NCBI GenBank assembly: GCA_038214715.1
Contig: JBBQRP010000001.1
Span: 131,646 to 195,645 of the forward strand
Source of the DNA: Thermoanaerobaculia bacterium
GTDB lineage: Bacteria; Acidobacteriota; Thermoanaerobaculia; UBA5066
Direction of reading: 5' to 3'
Length of the DNA stretch: 64,000 bases
Under the pieces are notes generated by a model. The model was not told where the DNA came from, did no database searches, and was given only the letters and a program-made list of their open reading frames with translations. Positions 22 through 60,902 of the stretch are shown here, piece after piece (within the stretch, counting starts at the first letter, position 1; every line of letters starts with the position of its first letter). Position numbers and translations under genes: made by a program.

Positions 22-1320
22 ATGGAGATCCTCGACGCGATGGGCCGCCTCGCGGTCGCGGAGTCCTCCGTGCAGCCGCAGATCGCGACGATCTGCTCGC
101 GCGTCTCCCAGATGGCCCAGCTGGATCCGGCCGTGAGGGAGCGCGCCCGCCGGCTCGTCGGAAAGCTTTCCGGCGACGAGGCCCGCGACGCTCTCCCGGA
201 CATCGAGCCCGAGATGGAGACGGTGAATCTCGCGGGCAACATGGGCGCGCGGCTCGTGGAATTCCTCGCGGACACGGTCAAGCGCGGCGCGTCGGACCTC
301 CATCTCGCCACGGGATTCGTGCCCCACCGGAGAGTGCAGGGTCTCCTCGAGCCCGTGGATGCGCCGCCCATGACGCGCGCGCGCGCGACGCAGCTCATCC
401 GCGAGGTTCTCGACGAGTCCGAATGGAAGCGCCTCGAGCGCGAACGCCAGATCGACGTGTGCCTGAAGCTGCCCGGACTCGGCCGCTTCCGCGCGAACTT
501 CTACTCGCAGCGCGGTGGCTTCGACGCGTGCTTCCGCATCGTTCCGAAGACGATCCCGACGATCGAGGAGATCGGGCTCCCGGGCTCCCTCTCGGACGTC
601 CTGAAATTCACGCAAGGCCTCGTCCTCGTCACGGGCCCGTCGGGGTGCGGAAAGTCCACGACGCTCGCCGCGCTCATCGACCGGATCAACGAGACCCGCC
701 CGTGCCACATCATCACAGTCGAGGACCCGGTCGAGTTCGTCCACCAGAACAAAGAAGCGCTCGTGAACCAGCGCCAGGTGCCCCACCACACGGCGTCCTT
801 CGCGCGGGCGCTCAAGGCCGCCCTCCGCGAGGACCCGGACGTGATCCTCGTCGGAGAAATGCGCGACCTCGACACGATCTCCCTCGCGATCACGGCCTCG
901 GAGACGGGCCACCTCGTGCTCGGGACGTTGCACACGACAAACGCGCCCGCGACGATCGACCGCATCATCAGCTCGTTTCCGCCCGGCCAGCAGGGCCAGA
1001 TCCGCGTGATGCTCGCGGACTCCCTCAAGGCCGTCATCTCGCAGGCGCTCCTCCCGCGCCGCGGGTTCGCGGGACGCGTCGCGGCCTTCGAGATCCTGAG
1101 ATCCACGTCCGCCGTGGCCGCGCTCATCCGCGAAGGCAAGACGCACCAGCTCCCGTCGCAGCTCCAGACGGGCCAGAACGCCGGCATGATCACGATGGAC
1201 CAGTCGCTGATGAAGCTCTGCGAGGAGGGAAAGGTCGATCCCGAGCGGGCGCTCGAGAAGGCGCTCAAGAAGGAGCCGTTCGAGAAGCTCATGGCCGACG
1301 AGAGGCAGGCGCTCGAGTGA
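22..1320 (+). CDS. pilT: PilT/PilU-family type IV pilus retraction ATPase, paralog 1. It has a ~70-aa N-terminal extension, and the frame is open to the window start, so the true start may lie upstream.
   Basis: Walker A GPSGCGKST. Conserved PilT core: ITVEDPVEF, DPDVILVGEMRD, GHLVLGTLHT, LIREGK. Its stop TGA overlaps the GTG start of the next paralog. Confidence 0.85.
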   Translation: MEILDAMGRLAVAESSVQPQIATICSRVSQMAQLDPAVRERARRLVGKLSGDEARDALPDIEPEMETVNLAGNMGARLVEFLADTVKRGASDLHLATGFVPHRRVQGLLEPVDAPPMTRARATQLIREVLDESEWKRLERERQIDVCLKLPGLGRFRANFYSQRGGFDACFRIVPKTIPTIEEIGLPGSLSDVLKFTQGLVLVTGPSGCGKSTTLAALIDRINETRPCHIITVEDPVEFVHQNKEALVNQRQVPHHTASFARALKAALREDPDVILVGEMRDLDTISLAITASETGHLVLGTLHTTNAPATIDRIISSFPPGQQGQIRVMLADSLKAVISQALLPRRGFAGRVAAFEILRSTSAVAALIREGKTHQLPSQLQTGQNAGMITMDQSLMKLCEEGKVDPERALEKALKKEPFEKLMADERQALE

Positions 1321-2465
1321 GCACGACGCCTCCCGTCTCGATCGCGGACCGCGGGGCGAACCGGATCGACACGCTCCTCCGGATCGTCGTCGACAAGAAA
1401 GCCTCGGATCTCCACCTCGCCGTCGGCTCGCCGCCCATGATCCGCGTGGACGGCGACCTCACGCGCCTGAAGTGGAGGACCCTGACGGAGGAGGAATACG
1501 AAAGCCTCATCGCGCCGATCGCGCCCGAGAGGCCCTTCAAGGACTGGAAGGAAACGGGCGACGCGGACTTCGGGTACTCGATGGGCAAGATCGCGCGCTT
1601 CCGCGTGAACCTGTTCCGCCAGGAGCACGGCTCCGGCGCGGTCCTCCGGATGATTCCGCCGAAGGTGCTCTCGATCGAGGAGCTCGGCCTGCCTCCGATC
1701 GTCTCGAACGTCGCGCGCGTCTCGCGCGGGCTCGTCCTCGTCACGGGGCCGACGGGATCGGGCAAGTCGACGACGCTCGCGGCACTCCTCGACTGGATCA
1801 ACCGGACGCGCGCGTCGCACATCGTCACGATCGAAGACCCCGTCGAGTTTCTCCACACGCCCCAGAAGTCCCTGATTTCCCATCGCGAGCTGGGCTTCGA
1901 CACGCCGACGTTCGCGGGCGCGCTCAAGGCCGCTCTGCGCGAGGATCCCGACGTCGTGCTCGTCGGAGAGCTTCGCGACCTCGAGACGATGTCGATGGCG
2001 CTCCAGGCGGCGGAGACGGGGCTCCTCGTGTTCGGGACGCTGCACACGAACTCGGCCTCCAAAGCCGTCGATCGGCTCATCGACAGCTTCCCCGCCGAGG
2101 AGCAGGAACAGGTCCGCACCGTGCTCGCGGAGGTCCTGAAAGCCGTCGTCGCGCAGGTGCTCCTGAAGAAGAAGGGCGGCGGACGCGCGCCGTCGTTCGA
2201 GGTCCTCAGGGGATCCTCCGCGCTCTCGAACAGCATCCGGGAAGGCAAGACGAACATGATCTCGACGCTGATCCAGACGGGTCGGTCCGCGGGGATGATC
2301 GGCATGGACCAGTACCTCGCGGACCTCGTCGTCGGGGGTACGGTGGACTCCGAAGAGGCGTTCGAGAAGGCCCTCGACAAGGATCAGTTCCGGAGCCTGA
2401 TCGAGAAGCGGAAGACCGCTACCGCCCGCCCCGCTGCTCCCGGAGCGGGCGCCCTCGAACCCTGA
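1317..2465 (+). CDS. pilT: PilT/PilU-family type IV pilus ATPase, paralog 2. It has a short C-terminal tail and looks PilU-like.
   Basis: In-frame GTG at 1317 overlaps the upstream stop (GTGA). Translation reads VSTTPP...DLHLAVGSPPMIRVDG, then GPTGSGKSTT, IVTIEDPVEF, DPDVVLVGELRD, GTLHTNSA, SIREGK. The upstream part of the track ORF 423..2465 is out-of-gene frame noise. Confidence 0.85.
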   Translation: MSTTPPVSIADRGANRIDTLLRIVVDKKASDLHLAVGSPPMIRVDGDLTRLKWRTLTEEEYESLIAPIAPERPFKDWKETGDADFGYSMGKIARFRVNLFRQEHGSGAVLRMIPPKVLSIEELGLPPIVSNVARVSRGLVLVTGPTGSGKSTTLAALLDWINRTRASHIVTIEDPVEFLHTPQKSLISHRELGFDTPTFAGALKAALREDPDVVLVGELRDLETMSMALQAAETGLLVFGTLHTNSASKAVDRLIDSFPAEEQEQVRTVLAEVLKAVVAQVLLKKKGGGRAPSFEVLRGSSALSNSIREGKTNMISTLIQTGRSAGMIGMDQYLADLVVGGTVDSEEAFEKALDKDQFRSLIEKRKTATARPAAPGAGALEP

Positions 2466-2481: not shown

Positions 2482-4254
2482 TCAGTCGACGGACGGTAGC
2501 GTGAGGACGAACCGGGCGCCGAGGAGGCCGGGCGAGCGCTCGACCGTGACGGCGCCGCCATGGAGGAGCGCGATCTTCGCGACGAGGGCGAGACCGAGGC
2601 CCGTCCCGGTGTCCTTCGTCGAGTAGAAGGGGACGAAGAGCTTTCCGACGTCTGCCTCCGGAACGCCCGGCCCGTCGTCCTCGACCGCGATCCTCGCGAA
2701 GCCACCCGCGGCGCCTTCGCCGAGGAGAAGAACTCGGCCCGCCCGGCCGCCCGCGGCCGCGGCCTCGCAGGCGTTCTTCACGAGGTTCACGAGCGCGCGC
2801 CTCACGAGGGCCCCGTCGGCGACCGCGGGCTCGAACGCCCCGGAGGCTTCCACGCGGACGCCGGGAGTCAGGGCGCGCTGCTCCTCCGCGATCTCACGGG
2901 CGAGGGCGCCGAGGTCACAGGAGCCCGCCTCGAACGCCTCGGGCCGCGCGAAGAAGAGGAAATCTCCCGTCACGCGCGCCACGTGCTCGGCTTCGGCCTG
3001 GATCGCGTCGAGCTGGCGGCCGCGGGCCGCGGGGTCGGCCGTCTTCGCCGCCAGGCGCGCCCAGCCGAGAATCGTCCCGGTCGCGTTCCGGAACTCGTGC
3101 GCGATACCGGCCGACATCTCGCCGAGCGCCGCAAGCTCGCGGCGGGACGAGAGCTCCCGCTCGAGGCGCCGCGTATTCGTGCGGTCCTCGAGGAACAGAA
3201 GGACGCCCAGGACCGTCTTCCCGGAGTCGAGAATCGGGACGGCGGTCAGCTCGAGAAGCCGCGTGTCGGGGCCGGCTCCGATCGCGACCTCCCGCGAAAG
3301 AGTCGGCGTGCCGCGGCGCGCCGACTCCACGGCGGCGCGAACAGCTGGAATCGGAGAGAGCGTCGAGTCGGCGTCCGCGTCGACATCCCATTCCCGGAGG
3401 GCCAGGAGCTCGCGAGCGGGCCCGTTCGCCTGGGTGAGACGGCCGGCGGCGTTCACGACGACGAGGCCGCCCGGATGCGACCGGACGAGCGTCTCGGCCG
3501 TCACGGCGAGGTCGTCCGCGCGGCGCTGTTCGGAACGGCGGAGGTCCTCGAGCTCGGCGGTGCGTTTCTTGAGCTCCTCGACCGTCCGCTGGAACGTCGC
3601 GATCGCGGTCTCCGCCTCGTCACCGCCCCCGTGCCCGGCCGGCACGAGGCCGCCCGCGCCTCGGGCCGTCTCCGTGAGCGCGTCGATCGGCTCAGCGAGG
3701 CGTTTGAGAAAAGGCACCACGAGAAGGATGAGAACGCCGGCGGCAACCGGAAGGGCGACCGAGAGGATGCGCGCGTTGCGCCGCGCTTCCGCGATGGGGG
3801 TCCCGTCCCACGTGATTCTGAGAATCGCCGTGCCCCCGGGCAGGGCCACGAGAACCGAGGGAGCTCCGCTCTCGGCTCCCGCCACGACGGGCTCCTCCGC
3901 GGGCCGCTCCGCCGGCGGCAGGTTGAGGGGGGCGAGGCCCGCGTCCGGAAGGAACGGCGCGTCCGCGAGGCGCGCGAACCGCATGTCGTACAGGGCGGCC
4001 CCGCGCGCGTTCCGGTCTCGGAGCAGGCGCGAGACGCGCGCGTCCGCGACGAGCGCCCCCGCGGGATCCGGCTCGCGCGCGAGACGTTCCCCCACCTCTC
4101 CCGTCTCCGCCGTCAGGCGGCGGAGCGTCTCGCCGGCGCCCCACGCCGCGGTGTTCCGGAGCACGACGACCGCGGCCCCCGCGAGGAAGAGGAGCGTCGC
4201 GAGGCCGCCCACGATCACGAGGCGGACCTCGCGCTCGAACGGGCGCCCCGTCAC
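2482..4254 (-). CDS. Sensor histidine kinase: TM1, a ~150-aa periplasmic domain, TM2, HAMP, PAS, HisKA and HATPase_c. No cognate response regulator is adjacent.
   Basis: H-box IAHEFRNA. N/G1/F/G2 boxes: NLVKNACEA, DDGPGV, FVPFYSTK, GTGLGLALV. Two hydrophobic helices sit near the N-terminus. GTG start at 4254 overlaps the pilD stop. The 1050-aa track ORF is an artefact upstream of residue ~455. Confidence 0.85.
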   Translation of the reverse strand: MTGRPFEREVRLVIVGGLATLLFLAGAAVVVLRNTAAWGAGETLRRLTAETGEVGERLAREPDPAGALVADARVSRLLRDRNARGAALYDMRFARLADAPFLPDAGLAPLNLPPAERPAEEPVVAGAESGAPSVLVALPGGTAILRITWDGTPIAEARRNARILSVALPVAAGVLILLVVPFLKRLAEPIDALTETARGAGGLVPAGHGGGDEAETAIATFQRTVEELKKRTAELEDLRRSEQRRADDLAVTAETLVRSHPGGLVVVNAAGRLTQANGPARELLALREWDVDADADSTLSPIPAVRAAVESARRGTPTLSREVAIGAGPDTRLLELTAVPILDSGKTVLGVLLFLEDRTNTRRLERELSSRRELAALGEMSAGIAHEFRNATGTILGWARLAAKTADPAARGRQLDAIQAEAEHVARVTGDFLFFARPEAFEAGSCDLGALAREIAEEQRALTPGVRVEASGAFEPAVADGALVRRALVNLVKNACEAAAAGGRAGRVLLLGEGAAGGFARIAVEDDGPGVPEADVGKLFVPFYSTKDTGTGLGLALVAKIALLHGGAVTVERSPGLLGARFVLTLPSVD

Positions 4255-5429
4255 GGCAGGAGCCTCGGTGCCCAGGGGATTCCGCCCGCGATCGCTTCCC
4301 AGGCGCCGCGCCCGAGAACGAACGCCACGAGGGCGCCGCACGCGAGAAACAAGCCGAAAGGCACGTCGACCCGCGCGAGAAGGACGAGCAGCCCCCCGGG
4401 CGTGGGCACGGCGCGCACCGAGAGAACTCGGAAGAAATCGCCGCCGTCGTCCAGCACGAGCCGGCCGTACGCGGTCCCCTTCCCAAGACGGGCCCGCGAT
4501 CGCGCGAGCCTCACGAACGCGAGGAGGCGTCCGGCCGTCGGGACGTCCGCGCGGAGGCCGACGCCTTCGGGCGCCGCCCCCGGAATTTCCCGGTAGCGCG
4601 CCGAGGCGGAAAGCACGCGGCCGTCGTCGCCCACGAGAATGCCGGCGCGGGCCCCCGCCGCCCGGGCGGCACCGGACGACGCCCGCGCGCGCCGCGTCTC
4701 GACCGACCAGCGAAGGAGCCTCACGAGAGTCGCCCCGCCAGCGATGATCGTGCCCGCCAGCGAGGCGAAGAAGAGCGTCAGAAAAACGCCCGCGGGTCCC
4801 GTGAACGCTCCCGCCATCGCGAGCATCTTCACGTCTCCCCCGCCCATGCCCTCGATCCCGCGCACACGGGCGTACGCCCGCCGGACCGCTTCCAGGAAAA
4901 CCGCTCCGACGAGGGCTCCGACGCAGGCTTCGGCGAGGTGGCTCGTGAGGAGGCGGTGCACGAGGTCCGGGTCCTCTGACGCCGCGGCGCGGTCGCGGAG
5001 AGCCGCAAGGACGAGTCCGATGGCGAGCGTTCCGAGCGTCACCTCGTCGGGCAGCGTGCGCGACTCGAGATCGGCGGCCGCGAGGATCACGCAGGCAGCC
5101 CCGAGAAGGGCCGCCGAGGCCGCGACGAGAGAAGGCCCGTAAAGGATTCCCGCGGCGAGGAAGAGCAGCGCGACGAGAAGCTCGACGAGCGGATACCGGA
5201 CGCGGATGGGAGTCGCGCAGCGGCGGCAGCGGCCGCGGAGAAGGAGCCATGAAAGGATGGGAACGTTGTCGTAGAACGCGATCGGCGCCGCGCAGCCCGG
5301 ACAGCGCGAGCCCGGATGGACCACCGAGAGCCCGCGCGGCAGGCGGTGAATACAGACGTTCGCGAAGGAGCCCACGACGGCGCCGGTCACGAAGAAGAAG
5401 CTCAGGAGGAGGCCGTCCACGGCGCTCAC
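4251..5429 (-). CDS. pilD: Prepilin peptidase / N-methyltransferase (A24 family PilD) carrying an unusual ~150-aa C-terminal extension that ends in an extra TM helix.
   Basis: N-terminal Zn tetracysteine (CPGC...CRRC). Catalytic Asp motifs DLESRTLPD and GMGGGDVKM. The polytopic TM pattern is as expected. 392 aa versus a typical ~250-290. GTG start overlaps the stop of the upstream YfhO-like gene. Confidence 0.85.
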   Translation of the reverse strand: MSAVDGLLLSFFFVTGAVVGSFANVCIHRLPRGLSVVHPGSRCPGCAAPIAFYDNVPILSWLLLRGRCRRCATPIRVRYPLVELLVALLFLAAGILYGPSLVAASAALLGAACVILAAADLESRTLPDEVTLGTLAIGLVLAALRDRAAASEDPDLVHRLLTSHLAEACVGALVGAVFLEAVRRAYARVRGIEGMGGGDVKMLAMAGAFTGPAGVFLTLFFASLAGTIIAGGATLVRLLRWSVETRRARASSGAARAAGARAGILVGDDGRVLSASARYREIPGAAPEGVGLRADVPTAGRLLAFVRLARSRARLGKGTAYGRLVLDDGGDFFRVLSVRAVPTPGGLLVLLARVDVPFGLFLACGALVAFVLGRGAWEAIAGGIPWAPRLLP

Positions 5430-7720
5430 GGGCGGCTCCGTCCCGCGAGCGCCACGCCCGCGAGGAGGACGACCGCCGCGATCGAGATCCCCGCTCCGAC
5501 GCGGAAGGCGGCGGGTCGATACGCGAGATCGAGCCGATGGGCCCCCGCGGGAAGGAGAATCGCCGAGAGAGCGAGGTCCGCGCGGAGGAGAGGAACGCGG
5601 GTCCCGTCGAGGCGCGCTTCCCAGCCGCGCGCATGCGTGCGGGTGAGAACGAGGTAGCCCGGTTCGGAGGACTCCGCGTCGACGGTCAGGTGCTCCGGAA
5701 CGTCCAGGGCGATACGAGCGACCGAGAACGTTCGCACCGGGCGGGCCGGAGGCATTGGGCCCGCCGGAGGCGCGAGAAACACGACCGCCTCGGGGTCGAG
5801 GTCCGGCTGCGCGAGGGCCCGAAAGGCCGTGTCGTCGTCCGCTTCCCGCGCCGATCGTGCGAAGAACACGCGCCCTAGCGCGCGCGGCAGGCCATAGAGG
5901 GAGACTCCCCCTTCCCGCCGTTCGAGCCGGGCGCCTCCAAGCGACAACGGGAAGGGCGACACGACGTGCCGCACGTCCGCGAGCGAGAGGATCGTCTCGG
6001 CGTTTCCTCCCGCGAGAGCCGCGCCGAGGAAACGCGTGAGCCGCGGATTACCGATGGGGGACGGACTGCTCGCGGAAGCGAGACCGAACGGCAGATTCGT
6101 GTAACCGGACAGCGCCGCGCGGGCGCGAGCGGAGGCCGCTCCTCCCCATTCGCCTCCCGTGGCGCGCGAAAGAGCGGCGAGCGCCTCACCGTCGGACGCG
6201 ATCGGAAAGAAACGTCCGGGAACGCCGGCGAGCGCGGCCGCAGCCGGAGGGGGACTGCCGGACGCCGAGGGGGTGAAGAGGGACGCGTTCGCGGCGAGGA
6301 GCGGAACGGTCACGAGGGCGAGGAGAAGCACACCCGACACCGCGGGGCCGGGCCGGCCGGTCCATCTCAGGGAGGCGAGGACGAGCAGCCCCGCCGCCGA
6401 CGCGAGAAGAGCCGCGAGGGCCGGCGCTCCCGATGCTCTCCCCCCGGCGATGCCGAGGGCCAGGAGGGCGACCGCCACCGACCCGAGGACGAAGAGCGGA
6501 CCCGTCCGCGCCGCCGCCGCCGCGGGCACGCGCGCGTCGGTTTCGGCGTCGAAACCCCGCGGCCACGCGAACAGCCTTCCGTATCGCCAGCCGTCCAGGC
6601 CGGCGCCCGCGAGAGCCGCGAGCGCAAAGAGCGTGAGGACGAACCACCGCGCGGGAAACCGCACGCCGCGGGCGATCCCGAGGTCCCAGAGGACCGGTAG
6701 GATTCCGCCGGCCGAACCCGCTGCAAGGAGGAACCCCAGCACCGCGAGGAGCGCGAGGGAGAGCAGGAGGCGCGGGCGCGACGCGAGGCCCGCGCCCGCC
6801 CCCGCCGCGAGAACGAGCGCGAGCGGCGAAAGCGCGAGCGTCGCGAGGTATCCGCCACGTCCGGAAGAAGGGTGTCTCGTACGGGCGTCTTCGGGCGGGA
6901 GGACGAGGTCGACGAGGTCCGACGATCCGACGGGCCGCGCGAGCGCTTCGGCGCGCGTGACACCCGTGAGGCGGCCGGACGATGCGACGTAGTCGAGAAA
7001 CGGAAGCGCCGCGGCGGCCACGAGAGCCACACCGAGGAGAAGCCCTCCTCCGACGCGCAGCCAGGGCCGCCGCGATCGGCCCGCCGCGAACTCCTCGCGC
7101 CGGCCGGTGAGCGCGAACAGGCAGGCACACCCGGCGCCCGCGACCGCGAGCGCGGGCTCGCCGCCGAGGAAGGACAGGGCGAAGGCGGCCGCGAACCCCG
7201 CAACGGTCCCGCCTCCCACCGTGGTCCGCGCGGCCGCGAAGAGCCACGGGAGGAACGCGGCCGTCTCGAAATTGTTGTAGACGAGGACGAGGGAGAGGAA
7301 GGCGCCGCCGGTCGCGTACGTCGCCGCCCCGAGAAGCGCGCCGGCCCGCGACGTTCCGACGCCGAAGAGCCACGCCGCCATTCCGGAAGCCGCGACGACG
7401 AGGTGGAGCGCGATGCTCGCGAGGGGGCCCCAGGCTCCCGGGAGCTGGAAAACGAGATCCAGAGGGTAGAAGACGCCGCTCTGGAGCTGTGCGAGCCAGG
7501 GCTCCCCGCACCCCGAGAGCGGATTCCACAGCGGAACGCCGGAATGCCAGCGCGCGGCCGTGTAGGCCTTCATCGGCCAGAAAAAATCTGCGAGGTCGCC
7601 GCGAGCCGGAACGCCGGAGGAAAGGACACTCGGGAAAAGGAAAACCGCCGCGCAAAAGAGCCCAAGGGCGCCGCCGAGGAGCGCCGTCCGTCCCGTCGTC
7701 CCGCGGCCTTGCACCGTCAC
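5426..7720 (-). CDS. Large polytopic membrane protein, YfhO-like, a putative GT-C-fold glycosyltransferase. This is paralog 1 of 3-4 in the window.
   Basis: N-terminal TM helix followed by the first-loop motif GDLADFFWPMKAY (compare DLPFFFYPLKAH in the 60899..62989 paralog). More than 12 TM helices. The C-terminal ~150 aa are homologous to the C-termini of the other paralogs (W.ARLDG..VPL.RAD...A). Start 7720 (GTG) is uncertain because a terminator lies only ~13 nt upstream. Confidence 0.7.
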   Translation of the reverse strand: MTVQGRGTTGRTALLGGALGLFCAAVFLFPSVLSSGVPARGDLADFFWPMKAYTAARWHSGVPLWNPLSGCGEPWLAQLQSGVFYPLDLVFQLPGAWGPLASIALHLVVAASGMAAWLFGVGTSRAGALLGAATYATGGAFLSLVLVYNNFETAAFLPWLFAAARTTVGGGTVAGFAAAFALSFLGGEPALAVAGAGCACLFALTGRREEFAAGRSRRPWLRVGGGLLLGVALVAAAALPFLDYVASSGRLTGVTRAEALARPVGSSDLVDLVLPPEDARTRHPSSGRGGYLATLALSPLALVLAAGAGAGLASRPRLLLSLALLAVLGFLLAAGSAGGILPVLWDLGIARGVRFPARWFVLTLFALAALAGAGLDGWRYGRLFAWPRGFDAETDARVPAAAAARTGPLFVLGSVAVALLALGIAGGRASGAPALAALLASAAGLLVLASLRWTGRPGPAVSGVLLLALVTVPLLAANASLFTPSASGSPPPAAAALAGVPGRFFPIASDGEALAALSRATGGEWGGAASARARAALSGYTNLPFGLASASSPSPIGNPRLTRFLGAALAGGNAETILSLADVRHVVSPFPLSLGGARLERREGGVSLYGLPRALGRVFFARSAREADDDTAFRALAQPDLDPEAVVFLAPPAGPMPPARPVRTFSVARIALDVPEHLTVDAESSEPGYLVLTRTHARGWEARLDGTRVPLLRADLALSAILLPAGAHRLDLAYRPAAFRVGAGISIAAVVLLAGVALAGRSRP

Positions 7721-7732
7721 GATTCTAGGCCC

Positions 7733-7764
7733 GGAAAAGAAAAGAGCCCCCGTGAGGGGGCTCT
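7733..7764 (-). terminator. Rho-independent terminator downstream of the major pilin gene
   Basis: Perfect 9-bp GC stem AGAGCCCCC-GTGA-GGGGGCTCT, followed on the minus strand by CTTTTCTTTTC. Confidence 0.6.
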
Positions 7765-7790
7765 CGAAACGGGACTCAGAGGGAGGACGG

Positions 7791-8300
7791 TTACCGCTGA
7801 GCGCCCGCGGGGTACTGAAGGAACTGGCCGTTGACGAAGATGATGTCGTCGTTGAAGTCCGTCGTCTCGCCGCCGTTGTTCGTTCCGACGGCTCCGTTCT
7901 TCCCGTTGGACACGATGGCGTAGGCCTGCTGGTTGCTGCCGCCCGTTCCGTAGAGGAAGTAGGAACTCCACCCGTCGACGAGGGGGAGGAGACGGATGTA
8001 CGTCGGAGCGACCTGCTTGTTGAAGCCCGCGCCCGCGGCGCCGAAGGTGGATCCGGCGCCGGGAATCGTGAGACCCGAGGGGAGGGTCAGCGCGGCCGCG
8101 GCGGGATAGTGGTTGAAGTCGACGGCATACGCTTCGGCGGCGGTACCGGCGGAGCGCATGTCGGCCATCGTGCGCTTCTGCTTGGCACGCTGGATGGCAT
8201 TGAGCAGGTTGGGAATGGCGATCGCGACGATGATGCCGATGATCGCGACGACGATCAGCAGCTCGATCAGCGTGAAGCCTTTGCTGTTCCTCTTCTTCAT
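7791..8300 (-). CDS. pilA: Type IVa pilin (major pilin candidate)
   Basis: Class III leader MKKRNSKG|FTLIELLIVVAIIGI (G-1, F+1, E+5). 169 aa. Gly/Thr/Ser-rich C-terminal half. Strong SD AGGAGG 8 nt upstream. Dedicated terminator downstream. Confidence 0.9.
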   Translation of the reverse strand: MKKRNSKGFTLIELLIVVAIIGIIVAIAIPNLLNAIQRAKQKRTMADMRSAGTAAEAYAVDFNHYPAAAALTLPSGLTIPGAGSTFGAAGAGFNKQVAPTYIRLLPLVDGWSSYFLYGTGGSNQQAYAIVSNGKNGAVGTNNGGETTDFNDDIIFVNGQFLQYPAGAQR

Positions 8301-8333
8301 GAACGAAACCTCCTATGTTTCGGGGCGTTGCTT

Positions 8334-8347
8334 TCAAGACGCGTGCC
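8334..8347 (-). promoter_or_regulatory. Candidate sigma54-type -24/-12 promoter for pilA. The -12 element is imperfect (TTGA instead of TTGC).
   Basis: Minus-strand sequence is cGGCACgcgtcTTGAaa, ~37 nt upstream of the ATG. The same motif and spacing recur upstream of the second pilin. Confidence 0.35.
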
Positions 8348-8418
8348 GCTTTCCCCCGAGCCCGATTCCGGCTGGTTCAGGCAGAAATCGGGCCGAAACG
8401 GCGGTGGCGGGACGAATT

Positions 8419-8461
8419 TTTGTCGGGCGGCGCGGGACGCTCCGGCCATCGTTTGTCGGGC
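8419..8461. promoter_or_regulatory. 10-bp direct repeat TTTGTCGGGC (x2, 33 bp start-to-start), a candidate upstream activator site for the pilA promoter
   Basis: Exact copies at 8419..8428 and 8452..8461, each followed by a GC.GCG-like extension. They lie ~75-115 bp upstream of the -24 element, the usual position of bEBP (PilR-like) sites. Confidence 0.35.
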
Positions 8462-8475
8462 CGCTGCGGGGGTCC

Positions 8476-8964
8476 TCATCGCTGTGCGCCTTCCGGAAAC
8501 TGCACGAAAGTCCCGTCCACGAGGATGATGTCGGCGTTGAACGTCGTCGTCGCTCCGCCCGCGGGACTCGAATCCGGAATCCCGTCCGCTCCGGCCGAGC
8601 GCAGGGCGTAGTCCCTCTTCAAGGCGCTACCTCCGTAGAGATAGAACGAACTCCAGCCGTCGACGAGGGGAACGAGCCGGATGTAGGTGGGCTCGAGGGA
8701 GCCGGAGATCGCCCCGATCGGGGCCGTCGGAAGCGAAAGCCCGGACGGAAACGCGATGGCGGCCGAGGCCGGGTAGTTGTTCTGGTCCGCCGCATACGCC
8801 TCGACAGCCGTCGAGATCGTCTTCATGTCGGCCATCGTCCGCTTCTGTTTCGCGCGCTGGATCGCGTTGATCATGTTCACGATCGAGATCGCGACGATGA
8901 TTCCGATGATCGCGACCACGATCAGAAGCTCGATGAGCGTGAATCCCTTTCGACTTCTCGGCAT
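8476..8964 (-). CDS. Type IVa pilin, paralog 2
   Basis: MPRSRKG|FTLIELLIVVAIIGIIVAISIVNMINAIQRAKQKRTMADM. The N-terminal ~50 aa are near-identical to pilA and the C-terminus has diverged. SD GAGGGAG. The remaining 8965..10797 of the 773-aa track ORF is an artefact. Confidence 0.9.
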   Translation of the reverse strand: MPRSRKGFTLIELLIVVAIIGIIVAISIVNMINAIQRAKQKRTMADMKTISTAVEAYAADQNNYPASAAIAFPSGLSLPTAPIGAISGSLEPTYIRLVPLVDGWSSFYLYGGSALKRDYALRSAGADGIPDSSPAGGATTTFNADIILVDGTFVQFPEGAQR

Positions 8965-8997: not shown

Positions 8998-9012
8998 CTC
9001 AAGAAACGTGCC
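8998..9012 (-). promoter_or_regulatory. Candidate sigma54-type promoter for pilin paralog 2, with the same imperfect -12
   Basis: Minus-strand sequence is aGGCACgtttcTTGAg, ~37 nt upstream of the ATG. It parallels the pilA element. Confidence 0.3.
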
Positions 9013-9054: not shown

Positions 9055-10590
9055 GTGATCCCCCGTCCGCCCTTCGCCTCGGCCCTCACTCTGGAGCAGG
9101 AACTCGCCGAATTCGAGATCCTGAAGCCGAGGCTCGCCGAAGTCTGGGATTCGATCTCCGGACGGGACGATCAGCCCCACACGTCGGTCGTCGTGCCCTC
9201 GCTCACTCTCGATCAGGCGGAGATGAGGAAGCTCGACGGCGCGAGCTTCTACGAGGAGAGGCTCCTCTTCCTCCTCATCCGCCTGCGCAACCCGCGGGCG
9301 CGCGTGGTGTTCGTGACGTCCCAGCCCGTTCACCCCCTCGTCCTCGAGTACTACTTCCAGCTCCTCGTCGGAATTCCCGCGAGCCACGCGCGCAGCCGGC
9401 TCACGCTGCTCTGCGCCCACGACGCCTCGCCCCGCTCGCTCACCGAAAAGATTCTCGAGCGGCCGCGCCTCATCGAGCGGATCCGGCAGGGGATCACCGA
9501 CCGGACGCGCGCGTATCTGACCGTCTTCAACTCGACGCCTCTCGAGCGGAAGCTCGCCGTCCTCCTCGGCATCCCTCTGAACGGCGTCGACCCCGCCCTC
9601 AACTCGAACGGGACGAAGTCCGGAAGCCGCCGGATCTTCCGCGATGCCGGCGTCGCGATGCCGGACGGATTCGAGGACCTGAGGGACGACGCGGACATCG
9701 AGGGCGCGCTCGTGGCGCTGAAGGAGCGGAAACCACATCTCCGCCGCGCCGTCGTGAAGCTGAACGACAGCTTCTCGGGCGAGGGAAACGCCGTGTTCCG
9801 TTATCCCGAAACCGGTCGCCTCGAAGAGGCCGTGCATGCGACGCTCCCGAACGTCGAGTTCTCGGTCCCCTGGGAGACCTGGGAGGACTACCACGGGAAG
9901 TTCCGGCGCATGGGCGGGATCGTGGAGGAATTCATCGAGGCTCCCTGCAAGATGTCGCCGAGCGTCCAGCTCCGCAGCGACCCTCACGGCAACGTCATCC
10001 CGATCTCGACCCACGACCAGCTCCTCGGCGGACCGAGCGGGCAGGTCTTCCTGGGCTGCCTCTTCCCGGCCGACGACGAGTACCGGATGCTCATCCACGA
10101 CGCCGCGATGCGCATCGGATCGGTCCTTGCGGGCAAGGGCGTCGTGAGCCGGTTCGCCGTGGACTTCCTCGTGACCCGCGAGGACTCCGCCTCTCCGTGG
10201 AAGGCGTGGGCCCTCGAGATCAACCTCCGGATGGGAGGCACGACGCACCCGTACCTCGCGCTGCAGTTCCTCACGGGCGGCCAGCTCGACGCGGCGACGG
10301 GTCTTTTCCACTCGCCTCGCGGATCGCCGAAGTTCTACCGCGCGACCGACAATCTCCGTTCCGACACGCTCCGCGGGCTCATTCCGGAGGACCTGATCGA
10401 GATCGTGACGATCAATTCCCTCCACTACAGCCACAACTCCGAGTCGGGCGTGCTGTTCCATCTCGTCGGCGCGCTCTCCGAGTACGGCAAGCTCGGACTG
10501 ACGGCCATCGGGAACACCCGCGAGGAGGTCGAGGCAATCTACGGCAAGACCCTGCGGATTCTCGATCACGAGGCCGGCAGGGGCCACTGA
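9055..10590 (+). CDS. ATP-grasp-fold protein of unknown specificity (putative carboxylate-amine / peptide ligase)
   Basis: 511 aa. C-terminal ATP-grasp hallmark WALEINLRMGG (E-x-N-x-R). A preceding Gly-rich and K/R-containing region is consistent with an ATP-grasp core. Ends 32 nt upstream of malQ on the same strand. Confidence 0.5.
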   Translation: MIPRPPFASALTLEQELAEFEILKPRLAEVWDSISGRDDQPHTSVVVPSLTLDQAEMRKLDGASFYEERLLFLLIRLRNPRARVVFVTSQPVHPLVLEYYFQLLVGIPASHARSRLTLLCAHDASPRSLTEKILERPRLIERIRQGITDRTRAYLTVFNSTPLERKLAVLLGIPLNGVDPALNSNGTKSGSRRIFRDAGVAMPDGFEDLRDDADIEGALVALKERKPHLRRAVVKLNDSFSGEGNAVFRYPETGRLEEAVHATLPNVEFSVPWETWEDYHGKFRRMGGIVEEFIEAPCKMSPSVQLRSDPHGNVIPISTHDQLLGGPSGQVFLGCLFPADDEYRMLIHDAAMRIGSVLAGKGVVSRFAVDFLVTREDSASPWKAWALEINLRMGGTTHPYLALQFLTGGQLDAATGLFHSPRGSPKFYRATDNLRSDTLRGLIPEDLIEIVTINSLHYSHNSESGVLFHLVGALSEYGKLGLTAIGNTREEVEAIYGKTLRILDHEAGRGH

Positions 10591-10622: not shown

Positions 10623-12143
10623 ATGGTCCGTACCGCCCGCCAAGCCGGCGTGCTCCTGCACCCGACCTCGCTGCCTTCCCAGTTCGGCGTCGGCGATCTC
10701 GGCCCGGCCGCCGACGCGTTCCTCGACTGGGCGTCCGAGGCGGGACTCGCGCTCTGGCAAGTCCTGCCGGCGGGCCCGACGGGCCCGCACCATTCACCCT
10801 ACGACGGCCTCTCCGCGTTCGCGGGAAACCCTCTCCTGATCTCTCCCGAGTGGCTCGTCGAGGAGGGCCTCCTTCCGGCGGGAGCCCTCGACGGCGCCCC
10901 GGACTTTCCAGTGGGGCGCGTGGACTGGGAGCGCGTCCTTCCGTTCCGGCGGCGCCTTCTCGAAGAATCCTTTCGCCACGCGCGCTCCCTCGGCGCGAAG
11001 ATCGAAGGCGAGATCGCGCGCTTCGCGGGGGCGCCTTCGCAGGCCGCGTGGCTTCCGGATTGGGTGCTCTTCGCGGCCCTGCGTGAAAAGAACGAATCCC
11101 GCGCCTTCATGGAATGGGATCCGGCGCTCGCGCTCCGCGAGGAAACCGCCCTCGCGGCGGCACGGGTCGATCTCGCCGAGGCGATCGCGTTCCACACGTA
11201 CACGCAGTTCCTCTTCTTCCGACAGTGGCAGCGCGTGAAGGCCGCGGCGAACGCGCGCGGCATCTCCATACTCGGAGACGTACCCATTTACGTCGCCGGG
11301 GACAGCGCCGACGTCTGGGCTCACCGGCGGCTCTTCGCGCTCTCCGAGGACGGGCGGCCCACCGTCGTGGCCGGCGTTCCGCCCGACGACTTCAGCGCGG
11401 ATGGCCAGCGGTGGGGCCACCCCCTGTACCGGTGGGACGTCCTCGCCGAGGAGGGCTACGACTGGTGGATCGAGCGCATCCGGCTGAATCTCCGGCTCGC
11501 GGACGCCGTTCGGCTCGATCATTTCCGCGGATTCTCCACCTACTGGGAGGTGCCCGCGTCGGCGGCGACGGCCCGCGAGGGGCGGTGGGTGAACGGACCG
11601 GGGCTGATGCTCTTCATGGCCATCCAGCACGCGCTCGGCGACGTCGGCCTCGTGGCCGAGGACCTCGGCGTCCTCACGGACGACGTGAGGAGGCTCCTCG
11701 AGGTTCTCGGCCTCCCGGGCATGAAGGTCCTCCAGTTCGCCTTCGGCGAGCTCGACAGCGAACACCTTCCGCACCACCACGTTTCCAACAGCGTCGTCTA
11801 TACGGGCACACACGACAACGACACGACCCGCGCCTGGTTCGCGGCACTTCCCGAAGACGCGAGGGCGCGCTTTTGCGACTATCTCGGGACGCCCGGCGAG
11901 GACGCCGCCTGGGACCTCATCCGCGCGGCGTACGCGTCCGTAGCCGACCGCGCAGTCGTTCCGATGCAGGACATCCTCAATCTCGGCGCGGAAGGCCGGA
12001 TGAACGTGCCCGGCCGCACGGGCCAGAACTGGGACTGGCGCGCCGCGAAGGACGCGTTCTCGCCCGAGGTCGCGGGCCGCCTCCGGCGCCTCGCGACGCT
12101 GACGGGACGCGCGGCCTCTCCGGAGAGCGCTTCGAGGCCCTAG
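10623..12143 (+). CDS. malQ: 4-alpha-glucanotransferase (amylomaltase, GH77)
   Basis: N-terminal signature GVLLHPTSLPSQFGVGDLG, ~500 aa, with typical GH77 spacing of conserved Asp/Glu regions. Confidence 0.9.
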   Translation: MVRTARQAGVLLHPTSLPSQFGVGDLGPAADAFLDWASEAGLALWQVLPAGPTGPHHSPYDGLSAFAGNPLLISPEWLVEEGLLPAGALDGAPDFPVGRVDWERVLPFRRRLLEESFRHARSLGAKIEGEIARFAGAPSQAAWLPDWVLFAALREKNESRAFMEWDPALALREETALAAARVDLAEAIAFHTYTQFLFFRQWQRVKAAANARGISILGDVPIYVAGDSADVWAHRRLFALSEDGRPTVVAGVPPDDFSADGQRWGHPLYRWDVLAEEGYDWWIERIRLNLRLADAVRLDHFRGFSTYWEVPASAATAREGRWVNGPGLMLFMAIQHALGDVGLVAEDLGVLTDDVRRLLEVLGLPGMKVLQFAFGELDSEHLPHHHVSNSVVYTGTHDNDTTRAWFAALPEDARARFCDYLGTPGEDAAWDLIRAAYASVADRAVVPMQDILNLGAEGRMNVPGRTGQNWDWRAAKDAFSPEVAGRLRRLATLTGRAASPESASRP

Positions 12144-12233: not shown

Positions 12234-13973
12234 TCAGGGGGACGGGGGTCGCTTCTCCATCGCGATGTACGCGCCGTCGCCCGTCCTCTGACCCGGGCCC
12301 GCACCATCGTTGATGATGCCGTAAGCTGCCCACGAGTGTCCAAACACATCCTTTGGGTGATTGATCTTCACCCACCCGTTCCGGACTCCCTTGAGGGCGA
12401 GGATGTTGTTGACCTGCTTCCACTCGAACGGGTTCACCGTGACGATCTCCGGCGTTCCCGCCGGCGCGCCGCCGGCGTCCCCGTCGTAGACCTGCAGCTG
12501 AAGCTCGGACGGCCCATCCAGCGTCCGGGCGTCGTCGGTGAAGTTTAAGACCGCCACGTTGGAGCGGTTGTTCTCGTCGGCCCGGAGTCCGAAGATGTAG
12601 CCGTCGTCGCCGAAGGCGGCCTGGTTCGCCACGAGCTCGGGAGTGAAGAGCCCGAACTGGCCCCCCTGCGCCGCGGGAGACTGCGATGCGGTTCTGGCGC
12701 CGGCGTACGTCTCGCGGACGTCGGAGTCCGGGATCTCGACGTAGACGCTTCCGACGAAGCTGCCGGAGCCCGCCGGGGCGAGGGACGCGCCGTTGTCGCG
12801 AAGGAACTGAATGGCATTGGGGATGATCCGTTGCTCCGCCGGGCCGAGAGTCAAGGCAACGACTCCCGACCCGCCGGCCGGATTTACCGACTCGTGGTAG
12901 TTCAGGCGGAAGACCTGCGAGTGGTTTGCGCTGTTGGAGAGGAGCAGCTCGCTGCGAAACGCCCCGGCTTCCACGATGACGGGGATGTTCACAAAGCCGC
13001 CGACGGTGAAGTCACCGCTCACCGGGTTGATATACGAACCGTCGTTGGTGATGTTGTCGTTGATGACCCCATAGGCACGCCCGGGGCAGCCGTCCGCCCC
13101 GAGACACGGGGCAGTCACCTCGACCCAGCCGTTCGAGAAGCCGCTCTCGCCGAAGGAGACCTGCGCCCAACCGAGGGGACCCACGGTGAGCGCCTCGCGA
13201 AGCACCTTCGACTGCCCGTCGCCGCTTCCGGAGAACGCGATGATATTGAAGTCTACCGGGGTCGACGGGCTCGAATTGAACACGGCCACGTTCGAACGGT
13301 CGGTCGCGTTCGCGCGGAGTCCGAAGATCCTGGGAATGCCCGGGGAGACCTGCTCCGTCGGATTCAGGCCGCGATATGCCAGGCCGGCGCTCCCGACGGG
13401 TTGGGGCGCGCCGGTCGCGGTCGTCGTTCGGGCGGTCGCGGAGATCAGCTCCTGAGGCGAGACGCCCTCGAAGGTGACGAGGAGCGTGCCCCCCTGCTGG
13501 CCCGAGCTTCCGGCCGGGATCGGCAGCCCCTTCCCACGGAGGTAGGCGAGGACGTCGGGGATGACGAGCTGCCGTCCCCGCACGAGCGTGTCGGGGACGG
13601 TGCCGGAGCCGGTCCCGAGCGAGGCGGTGTAGCGGAGCGTGACACCCACGGTGTTCGGCTCCGCGTTCGTCAGGGATAGCTCCGTCGTGAAGTGGGCAGT
13701 GCCGGAGAAGACATCCAGCACGATGGGCACGAGGCGAGAGGTAGTGTCGGCGACGAGAGGATGGTTCAGGAGGATCAGGCACGCGAGGAGCGCGAGTGCG
13801 AGGAACCGGCTACGCCGAAAGGCCGAGAAGCTTCCTGATCCGCCCGGGATCTGGGTCGCCGAGTCCGCAGCGAGGGGCGTGCCCGCCGAGGCGTTTCGAG
13901 CCGCCGGAATCGCGACGGCACGAAACGCGAGAGGGAACGGGCGGATCGAACAGACGGTCGCGCGGATACGCAT
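12234..13973 (-). CDS. Secreted protein made of two tandem copies of an unrecognised ~230-aa domain. It is a paralog of the C-terminal module of the 19913..23425 protein.
   Basis: Signal-like region FRRSRFLALALLACLILLNHPLVA (possibly Tat-type, with a long n-region). Internal repeats share ARTTTAT/ARTASQS, GLRA(N/D)..(D/N)RSNVAV(F/L)N, GWV(E/K)(V/I), AYG(V/I)IND. The start at ATG 13973 is the only in-frame start upstream and is uncertain. Confidence 0.75.
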   Translation of the reverse strand: MRIRATVCSIRPFPLAFRAVAIPAARNASAGTPLAADSATQIPGGSGSFSAFRRSRFLALALLACLILLNHPLVADTTSRLVPIVLDVFSGTAHFTTELSLTNAEPNTVGVTLRYTASLGTGSGTVPDTLVRGRQLVIPDVLAYLRGKGLPIPAGSSGQQGGTLLVTFEGVSPQELISATARTTTATGAPQPVGSAGLAYRGLNPTEQVSPGIPRIFGLRANATDRSNVAVFNSSPSTPVDFNIIAFSGSGDGQSKVLREALTVGPLGWAQVSFGESGFSNGWVEVTAPCLGADGCPGRAYGVINDNITNDGSYINPVSGDFTVGGFVNIPVIVEAGAFRSELLLSNSANHSQVFRLNYHESVNPAGGSGVVALTLGPAEQRIIPNAIQFLRDNGASLAPAGSGSFVGSVYVEIPDSDVRETYAGARTASQSPAAQGGQFGLFTPELVANQAAFGDDGYIFGLRADENNRSNVAVLNFTDDARTLDGPSELQLQVYDGDAGGAPAGTPEIVTVNPFEWKQVNNILALKGVRNGWVKINHPKDVFGHSWAAYGIINDGAGPGQRTGDGAYIAMEKRPPSP

Positions 13974-14207
13974 CACGGGATCTCCTCGCTGAAGCGGCTC
14001 GCTCGTCCGCGGCCGGGCATTTGAAGGTGAGGTCACAGCCCCAAGCGGGATCCGTGGAGCCTGAAGGGATCGTACCCTTACACAAAGACTCAATCTCAAT
14101 TATTCCCGCTCCTGTAGGGGGCGTTCTCCGCCGCGGCGCACCGCGAGCTTCTCGGGCCGGAATGAAGCTCTGACGCTCGCGCACGGAATTCCCGCCGGGT
14201 CGACTCC

Positions 14208-59471: not shown

Positions 59472-60902
59472 TCAGGGGGTCGTCGCGAACTCGAGGAGGA
59501 CGCGTCTCATCCGTTCGATCCCGTCCATGAAGTAGGGCAGGAGGATGTACTCGTTCTCGTGGTGAATCGTCGACGCCTCGTAGATGCTCACCGCGAACGG
59601 AGAAACTCCGTAGACCCTGAGTCCCCGATCGCGGATGAAGGCCGCGGACGTGGCCTGTCCGCTGAGGATGTAGGGCCCGACCGGCGCGTTCTCGGGATCG
59701 AGACCGAACACGTCCGCGACGGCACGGTAGGCCTTTCCCTCGGTGGGGCTCGCGACGCAGTCGTGGGTCTCGAGAACGCGGTGGAGCGTGAAGCCCCTCG
59801 CGCGGATCCAGCCCTCGAGTTCGGCACGGGCGGACGCGACGGAGCTCCCGGGGAGGAGCGTCCGCACGGCCCGAATCGTGAAACCCTCCGGCGTCTTCTG
59901 GATGGAGCCCACGTAAATGCTGTCCTTGAGGAGGGACCTGTAGACCTCCGGAACGTCCTTCCAGGCATCCGCCCCGGGTGCGAGCTTCTCGGCGCCGTCC
60001 ATCATGTAGCGCCCCCAGACGTCGGAGCGGGACGGCGCGATGAACTTCAGGAACTCGCGAACGGCCGGGACCAGCCGGACGGCCTGCTCGGAATCGCGCA
60101 GCTTCAGGAACTCGCGAAAATCCTCGAGCGGCTTCGAGTCCCTCGACACCACATCGACGGACAACACAGCTTTCTGCATCGTCTCGATACCGAAGCGCTC
60201 GATGTGGCCGGACTTCACCTCGTTCACGCCCCCTTCGTTGAAGACGTCCGTGACGCCGGCGATGAGGTCCGGACGGTGATCGAGAAGCCATCCGACGCCG
60301 AGGTCGTCCCGAAAGGTCTCCTCGCCGGACTCGGCGATGAAGACGACGTCCCGGAGCGGAACGAGCCCGGCACGCGCGAGCGACGCCATCGCGAGGAGAT
60401 TCGCGACCGTCTGACCCTTCATGTCGAGCGTCCCGCGCCCGTACAGGCGGTCTCGCTCGATGCCGGTCCCGCGCTCAGCGGCGAACGGGGGCTTCGTCCA
60501 CGCGGCGGCGTTGCCCGCTGGAACGACGTCCACGTGATTGAGGAGCGCGAGCGCGCCGCCGGGCATCCGTCCCCGAAGGCGCGCCACGAGGATCGGGCGC
60601 TCCGGGTCGTCACCGGTGATCGTCACGGGAATCCCCTCGCACGCCAGCGTGCGCGCGAGAAATTCGACCGCGGGGCGGGTGATTCCCGGCGGGTTCGAGG
60701 TGTCGAAGCGCACGTACTCGGAGAGAAGCCTCACGGCCTCGGTCTTCATCGCGGCGTCCGATTCGATATCGAGACGGCGGATTGCGAGCGGCGCCGAGAG
60801 CCGCGAGACGAGGAAGGGGATCGCCCAAAGTGCGAGACCCGCGAAGACGACCGCACCGCCATACAGCGAAAGCCTTCGCTTCGCGTTCCGAGAGATCGTC
60901 AT
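59472..60902 (-). CDS. M20-family metallopeptidase (ArgE/DapE/CPG2-like) with an N-terminal TM anchor
   Basis: HVDVVP, GTLDMKG, ESGEE metal-binding motifs. N-terminal helix LYGGAVVFAGLALWAIPFLV. ATG 60902 overlaps the upstream stop. The track ORF 59472..61496 is a composite. Confidence 0.85.
   Translation of the reverse strand: MTISRNAKRRLSLYGGAVVFAGLALWAIPFLVSRLSAPLAIRRLDIESDAAMKTEAVRLLSEYVRFDTSNPPGITRPAVEFLARTLACEGIPVTITGDDPERPILVARLRGRMPGGALALLNHVDVVPAGNAAAWTKPPFAAERGTGIERDRLYGRGTLDMKGQTVANLLAMASLARAGLVPLRDVVFIAESGEETFRDDLGVGWLLDHRPDLIAGVTDVFNEGGVNEVKSGHIERFGIETMQKAVLSVDVVSRDSKPLEDFREFLKLRDSEQAVRLVPAVREFLKFIAPSRSDVWGRYMMDGAEKLAPGADAWKDVPEVYRSLLKDSIYVGSIQKTPEGFTIRAVRTLLPGSSVASARAELEGWIRARGFTLHRVLETHDCVASPTEGKAYRAVADVFGLDPENAPVGPYILSGQATSAAFIRDRGLRVYGVSPFAVSIYEASTIHHENEYILLPYFMDGIERMRRVLLEFATTP

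Follow-up and report, generated by a model that had tools for sequence, protein, structure and literature searches.

The 64,000-nucleotide stretch of Thermoanaerobaculia contig JBBQRP010000001.1 that was analysed here (referred to as the window) encodes, on its minus strand, a 764-amino-acid (aa) membrane protein whose gene lies between two type IV pilin genes and the prepilin peptidase gene pilD. With somewhat better than even confidence, this protein is read as a divergent YfhO-family glycosyltransferase of the GT-C class that belongs to the type IV pilus system and would O-glycosylate pilin, using a polyprenyl-phosphate sugar as donor. An earlier note on the window had put the protein forward as a candidate pilin glycosyltransferase; GT-C similarity and a recurrent adjacency to pilD and pilin genes support this proposal, in which the glycosylation of pilin is itself the predicted step. 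The analysis establishes the family and fold of the protein, its topology and conserved residues, and a gene layout that is conserved within and beyond its clade. The order of the genes on the minus strand and their coordinates, which Pfam and the sequence bear out as the earlier note gave them, are as follows.

8476..8964, minus strand: pilin2, a type IV prepilin of 162 aa with the leader MPRSRKG followed by FTLIELL and a GspG-like globular part (Pfam N_methyl and T2SSG)
7791..8300, minus strand: pilA1, the proximal pilin gene, encoding a type IV prepilin of 169 aa that is the candidate acceptor (Pfam N_methyl and T2SSG)
7732..7765, minus strand: intrinsic terminator between pilA1 and the YfhO-like gene, a hairpin (7765..7742) followed by a T tract
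5426..7720, minus strand: YfhO-like GT-C membrane glycosyltransferase (predicted) of 764 aa, starting with GTG at 7720 (Pfam PF09586, Foldseek, profile search)
7433..7621, minus strand: predicted first periplasmic loop of the YfhO-like protein, residues 34-96, with the Asp42 codon at 7595-7597 and a PLWNP...G.P...YP motif
5513..6274, minus strand: predicted beta-rich periplasmic domain of the YfhO-like protein, residues 483-736, between the last two transmembrane (TM) helices (secondary structure from an AlphaFold2 model)
5426..5429, minus strand: GTGA overlap of the YfhO-like stop codon with the pilD start codon (sequence)
4251..5429, minus strand: pilD, prepilin peptidase/N-methyltransferase of 392 aa (Pfam A24_N_bact, 1.2e-33; Peptidase_A24, 1e-18)
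2482..4254, minus strand: sensor histidine kinase, AtoS/ZraS-like, with two TM helices and PAS, HisKA and HATPase domains (Pfam, NCBIfam), sharing a GTGA overlap with the pilD stop codon
22-1320 and 1317-2465, plus strand: two PilT/PilU-family type IVa pilus retraction ATPases (TIGR01420, 444.8 and 439.6 bits against a cutoff of 319.1)

The Pfam YfhO model (PF09586, GT-C clan) matches the 764-aa protein at 28.5 bits, with a gathering cutoff of 28.5, and the match is confined to residues 678-746 (HMM positions 766-835). The sole NCBIfam matches are to PgfM2 and PgfM1 and are weak, covering the C-terminal 60-70 residues at 24 bits against cutoffs of 1400-1500. Among 242 close homologues, the named ones bear the label "YfhO family protein" or "hypothetical", and a precomputed PF09586 match is present in 119 of 120 homologues among the matches listed. 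A family profile built from 22 close homologues, used at a threshold of E<=1e-3, retrieves 63,903 relatives counted as 50%-identity clusters, with a steep fall in score between the orthologous clade (above 790 bits) and all other sequences (311 bits or less). One of these distant relatives, P0150, aligns over nearly the full length (residues 19-764, 24% identity, E 2e-36) and scores 48 bits on PF09586; together with P0151 it spans 48-79 bits, and the distant pilin-linked relatives score 35-79 bits on this model, likewise in their C-terminal part. A search of the sequences of solved structures with the family profile gives no match.

Similarity to GT-C enzymes is seen at the level of structure, for which the earlier note had named a Foldseek comparison as a check. 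In the AlphaFold2 model (pTM 0.77, mean pLDDT 72), the high-probability matches in the PDB are all GT-C enzymes, including AftD (E 1.9e-6), ArnT, EmbB/C, STT3 and Pmt. Hydropathy, positive-inside charge and the model together place the N-terminus in the cytoplasm and predict about 14 TM helices, with loop 1 (residues 34-96) in the periplasm and a beta-rich periplasmic domain of about 250 aa (residues 483-736) between the TM helix at 459-482 and the final one at 737-759; this topology and an Asp in the first loop fit the GT-C assignment. Pfam scans of the 764-aa protein give no match to Wzy_C, even at E<=10, and none to TPR.

In the first loop, the DLxDFF motif on which the earlier note had drawn is present as G41-D42-L43-A44-D45-F46-F47, nine residues after TM1, although of this motif only D42 is a family-wide feature. 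Among 113 diverse relatives that were aligned, 112 (99%) carry D42, as opposed to 19% for D45, and D45, the second Asp of a DxxD arrangement, was dropped as a catalytic candidate on account of this low conservation. W65 and G72 are present in 100% and Y85 in 97% of the same relatives, and Y85-P86, H106, P158, R250, R354, R503 and W700 are nearly invariant. The retention of family-wide residues, including D42, W65, G72, H106, P158, R250, R354, R503 and W700, argues for an active enzyme, and the protein is probably a divergent, active YfhO-like GT-C, as judged from sequence conservation and the structural model.

The placement of the gene points to the pilus system. The YfhO-like gene ends and pilD begins within the GTGA at 5426..5429, in line with the coupling to pilD given in the earlier note, and the start of the kinase gene is best placed at GTG 4254, overlapping the pilD stop, so that the two GTGA overlaps make the three genes a translationally coupled unit. 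The two pilT genes, which overlap each other by a further GTGA at 1317-1320, are convergent with this operon. Close relatives of the YfhO-like protein all come from metagenome-assembled genomes, labelled Thermoanaerobaculia, Acidobacteriota or Holophagales, and the clade was examined with one genome per species in 54 Thermoanaerobaculia/Holophagales-type loci, where neighbours were found by tblastn with the window proteins. In every locus with a downstream flank, pilD directly follows the YfhO-like gene, beginning at its end or within tens of bases past it, and pilD is usually followed by the kinase gene and then by two pilT genes. Of the 45 clade loci that have an upstream flank, about 39 carry one to three pilin genes directly ahead of the YfhO-like gene, and the YfhO-like proteins of pilin-bearing loci show identities from 79% to 45%. 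The co-occurrence analysis thus finds the YfhO-like gene next to pilD and pilin genes in many other genomes (54 loci, about 39 of them with pilins and a terminator upstream). The arrangement is far beyond chance and is kept in dozens of loci.

Several further features of the clade loci concern the pilus genes themselves. In one locus (L007, 587-1770), a tandem duplication of the proximal pilin gene, seen as identical matches at 587-1078 and 1279-1770, brings the number of pilin genes ahead of the YfhO-like gene to three. In another (L012, 19247-21973), large N_methyl proteins of 291 and 468 aa are encoded beyond the two pilT genes, at a place that would correspond to the left of the window start; these are probably minor pilins, and the pilus locus thus reaches outside the window. 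In the PilD of the window, an additional stretch of about 130 residues (residues ~231-360) separates the A24 peptidase domain from the final TM helix. This stretch is kept across the clade (tblastn covers residues 1-392), and L055, a more distant locus, encodes a PilD of 262 aa that lacks it.

Outside the clade, the analysis covered ten distant representatives with profile scores of 195-311 bits and 23-33% identity, and five of these ten have a prepilin gene within 6 kb. One belongs to another Thermoanaerobaculia lineage (P0138), where the order is pilin, YfhO-like gene, pilD with a 4-nucleotide (nt) overlap, and T2SSE; as in the window, the overlap of the YfhO-like gene and pilD is 4 nt in L055. 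The P0158 locus has a pilin gene 49 nt upstream and then three YfhO-like paralogues, and the P0221 locus consists of a pilin, an M20 peptidase and a YfhO-like gene. The P0150 locus holds two Wzy_C-TPR genes, two YfhO-like genes and two pilins, while that of P0151 combines a PilS kinase, a pilin, Wzy_C, GT4, radical SAM and YfhO-like genes. In P0143, a PilB-like ATPase gene lies 3 kb away. No pilus genes are found around P0148, P0141, P0187 and P0250, three of which lie on contigs of 5.5 kb or less. A GT2 gene stands next to the YfhO-like gene of the distant relative L063.

A larger sample was obtained by scanning metagenomes with the tighter alignment of the P0158 subfamily (A3), as opposed to a 30-sequence alignment (A2), which had no stretch conserved enough for this use. 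In this subfamily, whose proteins are about 26% identical, 80 loci were recovered, and in 41 of the 60 with at least 700 nt of upstream sequence a type IVa prepilin gene on the same strand ends no more than 1 kb ahead of the YfhO-like gene, against a background of one prepilin motif in 243 kb of far flank. A clear hairpin with a T tract is present in 17 of 41 distinct intergenic regions between pilin and YfhO-like gene. The pilins of this subfamily are short (about 116-121 aa when mature) and have a median Ser+Thr content of 31% beyond residue 60. By comparison with the clade, pilD is rarely near these genes (3 of 42), and across both sets the general feature is therefore a pilin gene, often a terminator, and then a YfhO-like GT-C gene, with the pilD coupling being special to the Thermoanaerobaculia group.

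Three observations from the distant loci stand apart from this count. Many of the metagenomic pilins (L066-L145) have two Cys near the C-terminus. In another lineage (L061 1468-10008, L067 2260-7007, L089 1525-8804), two or three YfhO-like paralogues stand in tandem after the pilin gene, an arrangement that may allow several sugars to be added stepwise. In two further loci (L058 1-5025, L060 2138-3496), Wzy_C genes, with or without TPR and of the pilin or general O-oligosaccharyltransferase type, share the locus with YfhO-like genes and pilins, and some organisms may combine two kinds of pilin-modifying enzymes.

Each of the two pilin genes in the window is preceded by an element with the pattern GGCACG-N4-TTGA, which occurs exactly twice in the 64 kb, each time just upstream of one pilin gene, where 0.16 matches would be expected.

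8999..9012, minus strand: sigma-54-type promoter-like element GGCACGTTTCTTGA, upstream of pilin2
8334..8347, minus strand: sigma-54-type promoter-like element GGCACGCGTCTTGA, upstream of pilA1, 34-47 nt before the ATG at 8300

The same element also precedes the pilin genes in most related loci, and AGGAGG precedes the pilA1 start codon. By its letters, the element looks like a sigma-54-type promoter, a reading that fits the AtoS/ZraS-like kinase encoded downstream; no response regulator or enhancer-binding protein gene adjoins that kinase gene. The 70-nt gap between pilA1 and the YfhO-like gene is occupied by the terminator hairpin (a 10-bp stem with seven GC pairs) and its T tract, leaving about 20 nt before the GTG at 7720, which suggests that there is no space for a separate promoter. 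A hairpin and T tract after the proximal pilin are kept in nearly all orthologous loci, where the stem sequences differ.

Both window pilins carry a class III signal (...KG/FTLIELL), and pilin2 orthologues are found in 38 loci. NCBIfam GspG matches both pilins below its cutoff (73.8 bits for pilin2), the N-terminus of pilin2 matches PilA_Myxo, and the nearest solved relatives of pilA1 are Geobacter PilA-N, Thermus PilA4 (6xxd) and GspG (5wda). The T2SSG and GspG matches raised the possibility of type II secretion pseudopilins, which was set aside because the locus is flanked by two genuine PilT/PilU ATPases as well as by additional minor pilins; it is also disfavoured by the occurrence of the GspG-like domain in Thermus type IV pilins. 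In the alpha-beta loop, S75 and T78 are conserved within a "PSGLT" motif, the form "PSGL(T/S)" being common to both paralogues, and these positions align within one residue of S66 and S71, which are O-glycosylated in Thermus PilA4 by a transferase that is not named in the PilA4 papers. From this alignment, S75 and T78 would be candidate glycosylation sites. The Ser/Thr/Gly-rich C-terminal halves that had been ascribed to both pilins are only mildly so, with Ser+Thr contents of 13% and 17% and Gly contents of 16% and 12%, and part of this composition stems from the GspG-like Ca-loop/DGW motif, as opposed to a disordered Ser/Thr tract.

In the proposed mechanism, each pilin gene would be transcribed from its own sigma-54-type promoter, and the strong terminator after pilA1 would let only a fraction of transcripts read through into the coupled yfhO-like/pilD/kinase operon, with the proposed outcome that the enzymes are made in small amounts relative to pilin. 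Until they are assembled, pilins are held in the inner membrane, and their globular domain faces the periplasm. The prepilins of this system would be anchored by their N-terminal helix with the globular domain exposed to the periplasm, while PilD would cleave and methylate the leader on the cytoplasmic side. On the periplasmic side, the active site of the YfhO-like enzyme, predicted to lie around Asp42 in the first loop, would move a sugar from a polyprenyl-phosphate-sugar donor to Ser/Thr of the pilin globular domain, with S75/T78 as candidate sites, and this transfer would precede assembly of the pilin into the filament. In this scheme the catalytic activity, the lipid-linked donor, the pilin acceptor and the acceptor sites are all predicted.

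The proposed donor and acceptor have precedents in related enzymes. It has been reported that YfhO-type GT-C enzymes use C55-P-monosaccharides on the outward-facing side of the membrane (PMC5836110), and that, with undecaprenyl-phosphate (Und-P) sugars as donors, the YfhO-family proteins PgtC2 and PgfM1 carry out O-glycosylation at Ser/Thr of proteins that are anchored in the membrane and exposed outside it (PMC12041528). In Pseudomonas, pilin accessory glycosyltransferases are expressed via read-through of a terminator after pilA (PMC11841053). The anatomy of the locus fits the donor use of YfhO-type enzymes, the PgtC2/PgfM1 precedent, the membrane placement of pilins before assembly and the Pseudomonas read-through. 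Pilin O-glycosylation is the most likely reading.

Several observations weigh against this reading. The Pfam YfhO match is marginal and limited to the C-terminal ~70 residues, and the first-loop region of the model, in which Asp42 lies, is of low confidence (pLDDT 40-60). With Ser+Thr at 13-17%, the window pilins are not Ser/Thr-rich, and YfhO is best known for acting on teichoic acids and not on proteins (PMC5836110). Among the open reading frames (ORFs) scanned in the 64-kb window, which were called by third-position G+C content (GC3) and gone through by hand, there is no GtrB-like GT-A (Glycos_transf_2), GtrA flippase, Wzx or other donor-synthesis gene; GT-A and flippase partners may be encoded elsewhere. 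Finally, six Holophagales-like loci with full flanks have no adjacent pilin (L032, L037, L038, L039, L042, L046), so that the invariant partner within the clade is pilD, with pilins being usual and not obligatory. In L038 (4636-9805), a complete rRNA operon (16S, two tRNAs, 23S, 5S) ends about 100 nt before the YfhO-like gene, where pilins sit in other loci; the rRNA operon is confirmed in L038 only, and the other five loci have no pilins within 3 kb upstream.

In a first alternative, the protein is an active GT-C that would act not on pilin but on some other component of the envelope, for example a lipid, an exopolysaccharide or a polymer linked to the cell wall, and its position in the pilus locus would reflect inherited synteny or co-regulation with surface behaviour. 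YfhO itself, the characterised founding member, modifies lipoteichoic acid (LTA), and the best structural matches (ArnT, AftD, Emb) act on lipids and glycans, lipid A being the substrate of ArnT. The Holophagales-like loci that have no upstream pilins, the absence of pilus genes around P0148 and on several short contigs, and the modest Ser/Thr content of the window pilins are likewise what this alternative would lead one to see. It is nonetheless made less likely by the independent recurrence of pilin adjacency in very distant subfamilies (41 of 60 loci against one motif in 243 kb, and five of ten representatives), and is countered as well by the position of the gene within an operon that is translationally coupled to pilD, between the pilins and the pilT genes, and by the lack of polysaccharide or lipid-modification genes nearby among the ORFs scanned in the window. 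A non-pilin acceptor is considered rather unlikely.

A second alternative, which is rated as somewhat more doubtful still, accepts protein O-glycosylation but widens its scope, making the enzyme a general periplasmic O-glycosyltransferase like streptococcal PgtC2/PgfM1 or Neisseria PglL, with pilins as one substrate class among many. PgtC2 and PgfM1 of the YfhO family do modify many membrane-associated proteins, and in the Holophagales-like loci the gene stays beside pilD where pilins have moved away. PilD, too, serves several substrates, namely major pilins, minor pilins and pseudopilins. Against a general role, the tight cassette of pilin, terminator and glycosyltransferase is typical of pilin-dedicated accessory enzymes, and the protein that is rich in Ser/Thr in the metagenomic subfamily is the upstream pilin. 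Sequence alone does not separate this alternative from a pilin-dedicated enzyme.

That the protein has kept a GT-C fold as a non-catalytic assembly accessory or scaffold, binding pilins or PilD in the sense of TfpY/TfpZ, is very improbable: some accessory genes downstream of pilA encode no glycosyltransferase (PMC11841053) and the pilD coupling could suggest a complex, but all family-wide invariant residues are kept, the first-loop Asp included, and a protein of 764 aa with about 14 TM helices contrasts with the three TM helices of TfpY.

For pilin O-glycosylation by the YfhO-like protein, a close parallel in gene arrangement is the pilA-tfpW cassette of P. aeruginosa group IV, to which the earlier note had likened the locus, and the layout of pilin, terminator and accessory gene does agree with the Pseudomonas cassettes (PMC11841053). 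It resembles the pilA-tfpO cassette as well. TfpW is a GT-C pilin arabinosyltransferase and resembles the YfhO-like protein in having a conserved acidic motif in the first periplasmic loop. TfpW uses a lipid-linked donor, decaprenyl-P-D-arabinofuranose (decaprenyl-P-D-Araf), which is supplied by a dedicated gene cluster, whereas for the YfhO-like protein a lipid-linked donor is predicted and no donor genes lie nearby. The two are also set apart by their architecture as described: TfpW has 646 aa, 11 predicted TM helices and a C-terminal TPR domain, as opposed to about 14 TM helices, a beta-rich insert before the final TM helix, a marginal Pfam YfhO signature, no TPR match and the coupling to pilD in the YfhO-like protein. 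The other pilin-modifying enzymes, TfpO/PilO, PglL and TfpM, are often encoded beside pilA as well, but these have a Wzy_C/O-antigen ligase-like fold and transfer preassembled undecaprenyl-diphosphate-linked (Und-PP) oligosaccharides, while the window protein is without a Wzy_C domain.

With respect to the chemistry of transfer, a close parallel is offered by PgtC2 of S. pyogenes and S. pneumoniae and PgfM1/PgfM2 of S. mutans, which belong to the Pfam family that the window protein matches marginally and which transfer a single sugar from an Und-P-sugar to Ser/Thr of membrane-anchored proteins on the outward-facing side of the membrane. These proteins are from Gram-positive bacteria, are paired with a GT-A (GtrB/PgfS) and act on long, disordered, Ser/Thr-rich tails, whereas the window case is that of an Acidobacteriota-type diderm with a pilus locus, no GT-A partner nearby and a similarity to these proteins that is weak and C-terminal only. 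YfhO of B. subtilis, part of the CsbB-YfhO system that adds N-acetylglucosamine (GlcNAc) to LTA, shares with the window protein the GT-C class, many TM helices and a large extracytoplasmic domain between the last two helices (PMC5836110). It differs in having LTA as acceptor and an operon with the GT-A partner CsbB, and the window protein is marginal on the Pfam model.

A large bacterial "YfhO" family with a GT-C fold has been described as "component 27", apart from canonical YfhO and with its function unassigned (Durairaj et al., Nature 2023; PMC10584680), and no genomic context or pilus link is given for it there. Weak Pfam YfhO matches such as those seen here fit the description of component 27, to which the window protein may belong. 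Synechocystis sll1696, which lies downstream of pilA1-pilA2 and has been implicated in PilA1 glycosylation, was considered as a homologous precedent and rejected, as the whole pilA1-pilA2-sll1696 transcript is only about 1.8 kb and Sll1696 is far too small for a GT-C.

Further genes surround the locus. The window has a G+C content of about 70%. Divergent from the pilins, an ATP-grasp protein gene (9055-10590, plus strand) encodes IQCH-like ATP-grasp and PGM1_C domains and is BesA-like by NCBIfam, and it is followed by a gene at 10623-12143 (plus strand) that is also divergent from the pilins and whose malQ label rests on its translation. The ATP-grasp and putative malQ genes are kept in this place in most of the related loci, including ones at only 45% identity. 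Two further ORFs, at 12234-14099 (minus strand, 621 aa) and 60899-62989 (minus strand, 696 aa), have good coding signal and no Pfam match at E<=1e-4.

A full-text literature search, with most subscription journals outside its coverage, returned no paper tying YfhO-type proteins to pilins or type IV pili, and within that search the statement of the earlier note that a YfhO-like family had not been described in this role holds. What is probably new here, as a prediction, is a known type of cassette with a family that was not previously described in it, together with an unusual coupling to the prepilin peptidase. To our knowledge, the enzymes of pilin glycosylation come from only a few proteobacterial models, namely TfpO/PglL/TfpM and TfpW. 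A broader proposal, which is put forward tentatively and held at somewhat less than even confidence, is that pilin-dedicated glycosyltransferases include, next to TfpW and the Wzy_C-type enzymes TfpO/PglL/TfpM, a third class that is made up of YfhO-like GT-C proteins and is widespread phylogenetically, that cassettes of pilin, terminator and glycosyltransferase occur in many uncultured soil and sediment bacteria, and that the Thermoanaerobaculia enzyme is translationally, and perhaps physically, coupled to the prepilin peptidase.

If this proposal is true, leader cleavage and pilin glycosylation would be handled in Thermoanaerobaculia by one stoichiometric module, and the conserved GTGA coupling would be the first case of a glycosyltransferase that is genetically locked to a prepilin peptidase. 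A sizeable part of the YfhO-like family that was described as "dark" in 2023 (PMC10584680), and that the profile search counts at 63,903 50%-identity clusters, would thereby receive a first, testable function, and new single-enzyme tools would become available for protein glycoengineering. Pilin glycosylation, which influences pilus stability, adhesion and resistance to pilus-specific phages, would then extend to Acidobacteriota and other environmental phyla.

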